From NCBI RefSeq assembly GCF_000002075.1, contig NW_004797272.1, positions 3,658,195 through 3,722,194 of the forward strand: a stretch of 64,000 nucleotides of DNA, in the 5' to 3' direction. Origin of the DNA: Aplysia californica. Lineage: Eukaryota. This document shows positions 53,720 through 56,283 of the stretch, one piece after another (position 1 is the first letter of the stretch; every line of letters starts with the position of its first letter). Below the pieces are notes generated by a model. It saw only the letters and a program-made list of their open reading frames with translations, made no database searches and was not told the origin of the DNA. A program made the translations under genes and the position numbers.

Positions 53720-56283
53720 ATATTATATATGGGGTGTGGAGTGGTCAGGGAGGGATAGTACCTCTGTATGGGGAAGGCCTGCCATGTCCTTTTCAGGACA
53801 GCCCTCTCTACATTGGTTCCCACCGGACACTCAACTCTCACCTGTGGCTCCACATAGCTGCAGCATGCGCAGCGGCCACACCCCGGTAACTGCGTTGGCA
53901 GGCGGGCTGAACCAGGTAGAGGGTAGCTGGTCGGGTTTCAAACCCACTAGTGAGATAACTAGGGTCTGTCTCCCTACGCATGCAAAGACTGGCTCCGGCG
54001 GACTGCGCGGACGAAACCACTCGGTGGTTCAACGGGCAGAAAGGCGGTCCCAGCAGAGCGCCGCGGAGCGCGACAAGGGCACAGTGAGACAAGAAGACAC
54101 TGCTGGCCATCCGCTGCATCCAGGCCCATCTCCGGCCGTCTCGATTTCGTCGTGCCACCGGAACTAGATGGACAGGGACAAGAGAGTGAGGCTGACGACT
54201 TTGCGCAACTCTCCCTCACTTAAATCAAATTCAAGCGCAAGTCATGACTTCATCATCCCCACCTCAATCATCACCCACATCATTTCTCAAGTCCTGCGGC
54301 GATGGACGAGTGGCCAAGCGACAGGTGTGGACACACTGGCAGTCGTAGTCACAACTCTACACGTAGGCGGTCCAGGCCTTGTGGTCGCTTTTCAGTGAAT
54401 GAGATAGCAAGGGTCCCATACCAGCGGTAAGAAGAACTCAAAAAAATCTAAGATGACCATCACCCTTGGCGCATGGAATGTGCGCACCCTCCTTGACCGT
54501 TCAGGGAGTAACCGTCCCGAAAGACGGACGGCCCTCATTGCCAGCGAACTGGGTCGATATAAAGTACAGATAGCCGCCCTCAGTGAGACTCGCCTCGCTG
54601 AGGAAGGACAACTCACAGAGCAGTCTGCCGGCTACACATTCTTTTGGATCGGTCGTGGACTCGACGAGCGTCGCGAGGCAGGGGTTGGTTTTGCTATCAA
54701 GTCCAACCTGGTCAACAAGCTGGCAGCTCCCCCTAAGGGAATCAACGATCGCCTGATGACAGCCCGCCTCCCGCTCCCCAAGAAGAAATTCGCCACGCTA
54801 ATCAGCACTTACGCACCCACTATGACCAACCCCGACGACATAAAAGGAAAATTCTACGAGGACCTAAAAAAGACCATCACAGCTGTACCCAGGGCAGACA
54901 AACTCATCATCCTTGGTGACCTCAATGCTCGAGTCGGCAGAGACCACAAGTCGTGGGAGGGAGTGTTAGGGAAACACGGTGTTGGCAACTGCAACAGCAA
55001 CGGACTCCTCCTGTTGGAAACTTGCGCTGCCCACGATCTCCTCATCACCAACACGGTCTTCCGCCTGCCCAATCGTAACAAGACGTCATGGATGCACCCT
55101 ACTTCCAGCCTTTCCCCGTCACTAATGGAGTGAAGCAGGGCTGCGTGCTGGCCCCCACTCTGTTCAGCATGATGTTTTCAGCTATGCTGACCAACGCCTA
55201 CCACGACGGAGATATCGGTGTCGGTTTTCGCTACCGCACTGATGGAAAACTCTTCAACCTTCGGAGGCTGCAGGCGAGGACTAAATTCCATGCAGGCATA
55301 GCCCGCGATTTCCTCTTTGCGGACGACTGCGCGCTGAATGCCAGTACTCAGTCAGACATGCAGGGAAGCCTGGACCGTTTTTCTAAAGCCTGCGAAAATT
55401 TCGGCCTCATTATCTCCACAAAGAAGACCGAAGTTCTGTACCAGCCAGCCCCATCGGCTCCTTACGAAGAGCCCCATTGCACCAGAGACTGGCAGTGGCA
55501 GATAAGTTTGTCTACTTTGGCAGCACCCTCTCTCGTTCGGTCAATATCGATGAGGAAATGGCCTACAGAACTGCTAGAGCTAGTTCAGCCTTCGGTAGAC
55601 TGAAAGACAAGGTCTGGGAGCGAAGAGGACGGAGCCTTAACACCAAGCTCAAAGTGTACAAAGCAGTAGTTCTGCCATCCCTGCTCTACGCCTGCGAAAC
55701 GTGGACAGTGTACAGCCAGCATGCCAAGCAGCTCAATGCCTTCCACATGAGATGCCCCAGGACACTGCTTCATATCAAGTTGCAAGACAGAGTCCCAAAC
55801 ACTGAGGTACTACAGCGGGCCAAGATGGAGAGAGCATTTACGCTATCCTACTACGCTCTCAGCTCCGATGGGCCGGCCATGTTCACCGCATAGACGACTC
55901 TCGCCTCCCAAAGAGGCTACTCTACGGTGAACTGACCCAAGGCAAACGCTCTCTCGCCGGACAAAAGAAACGCTTCAAAGATGCTCTGAAAGCATCCCTG
56001 AAGAGTTGTGACATTCCCCATACCACCTGGGAAGAAGCTGCTCGCGACCGCACCGTTTGGCACTCGTTAATAAGATCGGGTGTGGCGAAATTCGAAGAAA
56101 GTCGCGTCCGAAAGAAAAAATGGAGACGGCAGCTGAGAAACGACCGAGAGAGCCCTACCTTCGAGCCTATTTCAGCCCCAAACATACCCTGCCCCCACTG
56201 CGACAGACATTTCCGTGCGAAGACACCCCACCCCTCCAGTGATGTGAAGTCAAGGTCATCTTCGCCAGCGAAGGACGAACATC

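Follow-up and report, generated by a model that had tools for sequence, protein, structure and literature searches.

A candidate HDV-like ribozyme with a hairpin in L3 at the 5' end of an RTE-type LINE family of Aplysia californica, likely impaired in a copy within a transporter gene intron

The first 193 bases of a decayed LINE, lying in an intron of an SLC28-type nucleoside transporter gene of Aplysia californica, have the layout of an HDV-like ribozyme with an additional hairpin inside the catalytic loop L3. We think it quite probable that these bases represent a ribozyme cutting intact elements at their first base, G+1, and that the copy described here is impaired by a factor of hundreds; in short, the ribozyme of its LINE family (F1) is likely active and this particular copy likely is not. 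Judged by aligned homologs, the fold is a covarying structural variant of the known HDV-like ribozyme class, widespread in LINE 5' ends, for which catalysis is predicted. L3 has been treated as a fixed-size part of HDV-like ribozymes, and as their most conserved one, and searches lean on that; with a natural, covarying hairpin in L3, such searches would miss a whole branch of the class. The fold would account for the exact 5' ends seen across a widespread group of LINEs, and the position of the hairpin would be a new site for aptamer insertion beside the active site.

Let us consider how such a ribozyme might work. In intact elements it would cut the element out of read-through transcripts at G+1, and the cut would give a fixed 5' end to the RNA template for target-primed reverse transcription. 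By analogy to HDV chemistry, the active site would be built by P1.1 together with the U20-G25 pair of L3, C53907 would act as the general acid, and the long stem in J1/2 with its short linkers would pinch P1 and P2 together. The hairpin would be tolerated because it exits the loop just 3' of G25, at a solvent-exposed position, and it has perhaps been maintained by selection and not by drift.

The LINE copy and the parts of the fold

The window, by which we mean the whole 64-kb stretch analysed, is contig NW_004797272.1 3658195-3722194 within the 927-Mb Aplysia californica genome; positions below count from its first base.

51910..56377, + strand: host intron of the SLC28-type nucleoside transporter gene, holding the LINE in sense to the gene
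53720..53730, + strand: 5' target-site duplication of 11 bp, the end of a (TA)n tract, adjoining G+1 (0 nt)
53731..56283, + strand: decayed, frameshifted single-ORF APE-RT LINE of family F1, between two (TA)n tracts
54453..55099, + strand: APE endonuclease part of the broken ORF (Pfam PF03372; 87.5% to the 1070-aa P0006)
55100..56222, + strand: frameshifted RT and C-terminal fragments (Pfam PF00078, RVT_1)
56284..56294, + strand: 3' target-site duplication, equal to 53720-30, directly after the LINE 3' end

Compared with copies of ~4.1 kb, this LINE has lost ~140 nt of its 5' UTR at 54407/8 and ~1390 nt of its ORF at 55099/100. Its closest homologs are mostly single APE + RT proteins of ~1070 aa on ~4-kb contigs, with cestodes, amphioxus, a fish, a sea urchin, a frog and a slug as the named sources. 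We found the architecture of RTE elements, namely one ORF of ~1000-1100 aa with APE followed by RT, no ORF1, a length of 3-4 kb and target-site duplications, and from it we infer an RTE-type clade. The labels 'RTE' and 'BovB-like', which draw on this architecture and on familiar motifs, are presumptive. The parts of the fold in the window copy are as follows.

53731..53923, + strand: HDV-like ribozyme fold with L3 hairpin, predicted to be cut 5' of G53731
53731..53737, + strand: P1 5' strand, GGGGTGT, pairing 7/7 with 53878-53884
53738..53834, + strand: J1/2 domain of 97 nt, a long P1.2-type hairpin closed by 53739-43/53828-32
53835..53845, + strand: P2 5' strand; U53845 would pair with A53911
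53846..53848, + strand: P3 5' strand GGC, pairing with 53875-53877; invariant, fixed by the search pattern for most homologs
53849..53874, + strand: L3, 26 nt, between the P3 strands
53849..53854, + strand: canonical L3 core U20-C21-C22-A23-C24-(G25), the G25 position being A53854 here
53857..53873, + strand: inserted L3 hairpin with a 5-bp stem and a 7-nt loop, covarying across lineages
53875..53884, + strand: P3 3' strand GCC (53875-77) and P1 3' strand ACACCCC (53878-84)
53885..53886, + strand: P1.1 GG, predicted to pair with C53851 and C53850; invariant
53890..53905, + strand: P4 hairpin, weakened in the window copy by T53891 and G53894
53907..53910, + strand: J4/2 C-U-G-A, with C53907 as predicted general acid
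53911..53923, + strand: P2 3' strand, with C53912 predicted extruded and A53918 bulged

P1, J1/2, P3, the L3 hairpin, the GG of P1.1, P4 and C53907 all lie where an initial annotation of this DNA had put them, and two of its details can be adjusted: its 9-bp P2 with one bulge is refined by the homologs, which favour a bulged A53918 on the 3' strand, and, while J1/2 is indeed 97 nt long, the inner tgtcct/aggaca hairpin proposed for it is not conserved across lineages and the enclosing stem is. This stem, which includes a covarying base, is joined to P1 by 1 nt and to P2 by 2 nt. The pair U53845-A53911 is proposed by analogy to the 19-80 pair of antigenomic HDV (PMC2175327). J4/2 of the window copy is of the C-N-R-A type (cf. 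PMC2175327 and PMC6326823), and C stands at the position of C53907 in all 25 F1 copies covering the site. The extruded C (position of 53912) is missing in loci L169, L226 and L227.

No longer stretch at the end of the 5' flank recurs at the 3' junction than this 11-bp duplication, which includes the sole TT interruption of the TA tract. When family loci were aligned for their 5' ends (best 30 of 40 matches), the full GGGGTGT start followed unrelated flanks in 11 of the 30, and no sequence common to these 30 was found upstream of the element start. A few of the other aligned F1 loci lack 1-2 bases, and the remainder are truncated further; about half of all aligned copies start inside P1, by a few to many bases. 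Among nine F1 loci examined, five were long copies with the 3' end motif, and all five have direct repeats of 8-15 bp at 0-6 nt from the 5' end; two of these five duplications lie in microsatellites and so carry little weight, and the window copy's own duplication lies in a microsatellite as well. G+1 is the 5' end of the element in F1 and in two further A. californica families, F2 and F3. Many copies of the three families sit in or beside microsatellites, (TA)n, (TAG)n, (TATG)n or (TATC)n, and their duplications begin with A after the element's 3' end. L003, L011, L012, L025, L027 and L029 are short, internally deleted F1 copies in which the 5' UTR is joined to the 3' end at varied breakpoints, and are possibly non-autonomous derivatives.

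Homologs and covariation of the helices

A descriptor that required P1, P2, P3, P1.1, P4 and J4/2 and left L3 free at 7-45 nt, composed after the motif had been seen, gave no match in the 64-kb window with G25 required and a single match, the site at 53731, with G25 relaxed. In shuffled sequence the same descriptor gave a single match over 150 windows (19.2 Mb, counting both strands) and none over 5000 versions of the UTR (53731-54450). Searched with 53000-55000 and with eight homolog loci, Rfam gave no HDV-type match at E<=10; it missed every copy scanned, as the initial annotation had expected of standard descriptors. The folding energy of the ribozyme region is unremarkable (MFE z -0.38), as expected because pseudoknots lie outside the nested energy model, and RNAalifold, unprompted, recovered P1, the J1/2 stem, P3 and P4.

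F2 and F3 were reached through a loose pattern and weak BLAST matches, and each has an APE downstream that is 59-65% identical to that of F1. A tighter pattern matched the A. californica genome 39 times, 33 of them in F1-F3, against 3 matches in the reversed control, and it matched 91 stretches of metagenome contigs. Scored by a covariance model of 13 sequences, 15 of these 91 loci reach 76-105 bits and the rest <=17 bits; seven of the 15 are outside the model and still attain 76-97 bits, L224, L232 and L227 among them being new lineages. Counted by eye, the fold occurs in about ten lineages in total. The model finds a single ribozyme in the whole window.

Several groups of matches were set aside. 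The 76 low-scoring metagenome matches are chance by covariance-model score, and so are 24 + 57 viral and 13 GTDB pattern matches, none of which (94 in all) exceeds 19.3 bits with covariance model R1. Genome matches at C1025, C691, C1159 and C401 are without P1/P2 and without a downstream APE, and the one at C94 matches neither an APE nor the UTR. A short-L3 form of the same core, with the same P3 sequence, was not found in the A. californica genome (1 match, 1 in the control).

P3, the L3 core, the GG and J4/2 were fixed in the search patterns, which also demanded a long L3 of bounded length, so that the invariance of P3, P1.1, the L3 core and the catalytic C among the metagenome matches comes by construction. 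No such constraint applied to P2, P4, the L3 hairpin or, apart from one base, P1, and these helices are nonetheless paired in the real matches. Alignment A1 is plain, unfitted MAFFT, and A4 (14 matches, 13 distinct) is model-fitted and leans towards the structure; A1 has 94.2% of cells paired with both-side changes in 13 of 24 pairs, and A4 97.1% with both-side changes in 15 of 24, reached by 0 of 500 shuffles, these cell counts overstating independent events since the aligned sequences are related. Slid controls of A4 are 20-47% paired. By helix, both sides have changed in 8 of 9 pairs of P2, 4 of 5 of P4, 3 of 5 of the L3 hairpin (96.9% of its cells paired in A4) and 3 of 7 of P1, namely pairs 2 and 6 in F3 and pair 1 in L176. 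The covariation that the initial annotation had called for is thus seen in P1 and P2, and also in P4; P1.1 is invariant. P3 and P1.1 are complementary in all 13 rows, mostly pattern-fixed, and as they never vary, covariation is uninformative on both. The central U-A and G-C pairs of the hairpin do not vary in the 13 distinct rows either, which might reflect a tertiary or protein contact, or a guard against mispairing of P3.

Could all this be a chance resemblance in a GC-rich 5' UTR? The ordinary folding energy, the lack of an Rfam match and a descriptor composed after the motif had been seen would allow it, but it is already contradicted by the covariation of four helices across lineages, and given one match in 19.2 Mb of shuffled sequence and an excess of 39 pattern matches, 33 of which fall in three LINE families, over 3 in the reversed control, we consider it exceedingly unlikely. 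Nested folding of the intact L003 gives a rival stem extending P3 into P1' a probability of 0.8-0.94, versus 0.07 for P1. This stem, TGTGGCT/GGCCACA, named as a competitor in the initial annotation, is broken in F2, M1 (a metagenome lineage) and L224/L232 (A-C) and shortened in L169/L176/L218, while P1 and P2 covary, and it was rejected as a conserved structure for this reason.

A more serious alternative is that the fold has been retained for a non-catalytic job, such as binding of the element's protein, 5'-end protection or IRES-like translation, while catalysis was silenced by the L3 insertion and an internal promoter sets the 5' ends. The large insertion beside the active site fits this reading, as do the non-catalytic roles reported for HDV-like 5' folds of R2 (PMC6765202) and the departure of F3 from the J4/2 consensus: J4/2 is CUGA in the window copy and F1, CUAA in F2 and CUAG in F3, and the G of F3 at the normally invariant last A, together with two U-U mismatches in its P2, counts against activity in F3. 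On the other hand, U20, C22, C24, G25, the GG and the J4/2 C are retained in F2 and F3, where most of them, the P1.1 GG included, were outside the query, F3, found by BLAST, keeping the core free of pattern bias; G+1 is the 5' end in all three families; and P1' of F3 has changed along with the first bases of the element. We therefore hold a purely non-catalytic fold to be unlikely and prefer a ribozyme active in intact elements.

A few further observations concern these homologs. L191, L204, L208, L218, L169 and L176 begin with a 9-nt doubled P1-like strand, whose second copy is the 5' side of the J1/2 stem, and two cut registers or a folding switch might be possible there; in F3 the two strands of the doublet have diverged, and it is the first that P1' matches. 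Three raw polyA RNA runs with the same species label gave 0 reads on L003:1395-2018, which carries no weight either way, and one run of RNA contigs (type guessed) gave 10 contigs at the locus, which as contigs cannot show RNA ends. A conserved block, AAGACTG...CGG, lies at ~53975-54000, just 3' of the ribozyme; it is also present in F2, F3, L191 and L208 and is common to lineages with the window-type endonuclease.

Relation to known ribozymes and exchange of the 5' module

HDV-like ribozymes at RTE 5' ends have been reported before (PMC3774820, PMC6765202), and those of R2, R4/Dong, L1Tc, Baggins and RTE as well as drz-Agam-2 likewise sit at the exact 5' end. The non-LTR ribozymes share with the present fold the order P1-J1/2-P2-P3-L3-P1.1-P4-J4/2 and the UCCHCG core; a P1 of 6-7 bp with G at the cleavage site and a P2 that forms a pseudoknot with the 3' end, both seen here, are general features of HDV-like ribozymes. 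The difference is in L3. U20 and G25 in this loop are a signature of HDV-like ribozymes (PMC3386971), its U..CG is fixed in descriptors (PMC6326823), and known HDV-like L3 loops have 7-8 nt (bioRxiv 2022.09.22.508989), versus 26-29 nt with a covarying hairpin in 14 of 14 aligned matches here, a long L3 having been demanded by the pattern. The layout is U-C-C-H-C-G, then 2-3 nt, a hairpin with a stem of 5-7 bp across lineages, and a single G adjoining P3. The base that follows the L3 G in antigenomic HDV bulges out and ranks with the least conserved ones (PMC3386971), so this might be the point most able to take a hairpin.

Other features have closer precedents. The 'pinch' model of drz-Agam-2 (PMC4908430) likewise has a long structured J1/2, short linkers and an extended P2, and in drz-Agam-2-1 the J1/2 hairpin with short linkers speeds the ribozyme by nearly three orders of magnitude (PMC4908430). 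Antigenomic HDV (PMC2175327) likewise has 4 nt in J4/2, after which comes a pair with the base preceding P3, and its optional extruded base 81 is mirrored by the unpaired C53912; the G40-C41-A42-A43 turn of genomic HDV is matched by GCAA after the P1.1 GG in several lineages. Unlike HDV, the present fold has a LINE context, a J1/2 of ~100 nt, the L3 hairpin and mostly G-C, not G-U, as the first P1 pair. Our search of the literature, including passages of PMC8495972, PMC13725137 and PMC10879173, gave no L3 hairpin; the primary papers (Webb 2009, Ruminski 2011) and supplements were outside its scope, and a published long-L3 example may exist.

Truncated twister ribozymes, in the T-variants of the RTE-superfamily element Perere-3, would do the same job with an unrelated fold; there the ribozyme cut sets the 5' end and the target duplication adjoins it (PMC8501958, PMC7761336). 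Unlike in those T-variants, P1 here is wholly inside the element, and the insertion site would make no difference to activity. Loci L322-L341 (e.g. L325, L326, L334, L327, L340) of the A. californica genome belong to two young LINE families, with copies <=99% alike, that share another conserved 5' motif in their first ~120 nt. This motif, without an Rfam match at E<=5, is one that we take to recall a truncated twister ribozyme.

The ribozyme cassette stands upstream of three endonuclease types with pairwise identities of 24-33%. The closest cores come from F2 (L032, L045-L064) and M1 (L146, L197, L200): the core is 97% identical, J1/2 70%, the next 300 nt 52% (shuffled baseline 51%) and the APE 33%, other core pairs being 68-88% identical. 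Within the A. californica genome, similarity to the M1 5' end ends at the ribozyme 3' end; among 20 A. californica loci related to the M1 protein region no covariance-model match was found, and the 11 of them whose 5' ends were inspected begin with other sequence. A 97% identical core followed by an unrelated downstream UTR and a 33% identical APE makes a swap of the 5' module likely and points to its capture between LINE lineages, a reading that rests on this one pair and on short-read contigs. We can extend it only tentatively, and with some doubt, to the broader proposal that these ribozymes are an overlooked, widespread HDV-like subclass with a functional fifth helix in the catalytic loop, in which the 190-nt cassette moves among LINE lineages (endonucleases 24-33% identical) as a plug-in module for the 5' end, interchangeable with twister-type 5' ends.

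Loss of G25 in the window copy and the host gene

The designation of this element's 5' end as an HDV-like ribozyme stands for the family, with the fold at the 5' end, the hairpin and the covariation, and fails in one respect for the window copy, which is without G25. A53854 occupies this position, where 28 of 28 other F1 copies have G; 26 of the 28 have U at the U20 position, and U20 and G25 also occur in F2 and F3. The window copy departs from the commonest F1 letter at six positions, four of them in the core (A53854, T53855, T53891, G53894), the two P4 changes, T53891 and G53894, being private to it. A53854 and these P4 changes were absent from the initial description. In antigenomic HDV, U/A in place of U/G lowers k2 528-fold, with 17% still cleaved in 2 h (PMC3386971), and the same G25 change abolished cleavage in the Nasonia R2 ribozyme (PMC3774820). 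Nested folding gives P3, the hairpin and P4 probabilities of 0.22, 0.28 and 0.04 in the window copy versus 0.94, 0.94 and 0.86 in L003, and the window copy has a new competing local hairpin at 53843-54. By these comparisons the window copy is likely nearly inactive.

This bears on the host gene. The intron at 51910-56377 comes after the fourth placeable coding exon of the transporter gene, in line with the earlier placement of the element, in sense, in intron 4 of copy 2. The further suggestion, that the element could cut the pre-mRNA of its host, amounts to a window copy that is still an efficient ribozyme. P1, P3, P1.1 and C53907 are intact, the element is in sense to the gene, and G-to-A mutants of HDV retain the slow activity just mentioned (PMC3386971). 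Against this, G25 is lost, P4 is weakened, the hairpin at 53843-54 competes, and the change at G25 is the one that costs HDV 528-fold and abolishes the Nasonia R2 activity (PMC3386971, PMC3774820); with such a loss, cutting of the host pre-mRNA is unlikely, and we give an efficient window copy a lower probability still than a non-catalytic fold. For the host gene the ordinary reading is that of a dead intron copy, unlikely to affect the transcript by cleavage.

The paralog of the transporter gene at 7-13 kb has an intron of ~1.2 kb in the equivalent place. Between these two + copies lies a third copy, partial and in inverted orientation (~37040-39060, minus strand), a search of which gave nothing matching the exon at 56380. 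The LINE 3' end is ~95 nt upstream of the 3' splice site, with mostly (TA)n between (56284-56377), and branch-point use in the host intron could be affected by this closeness.
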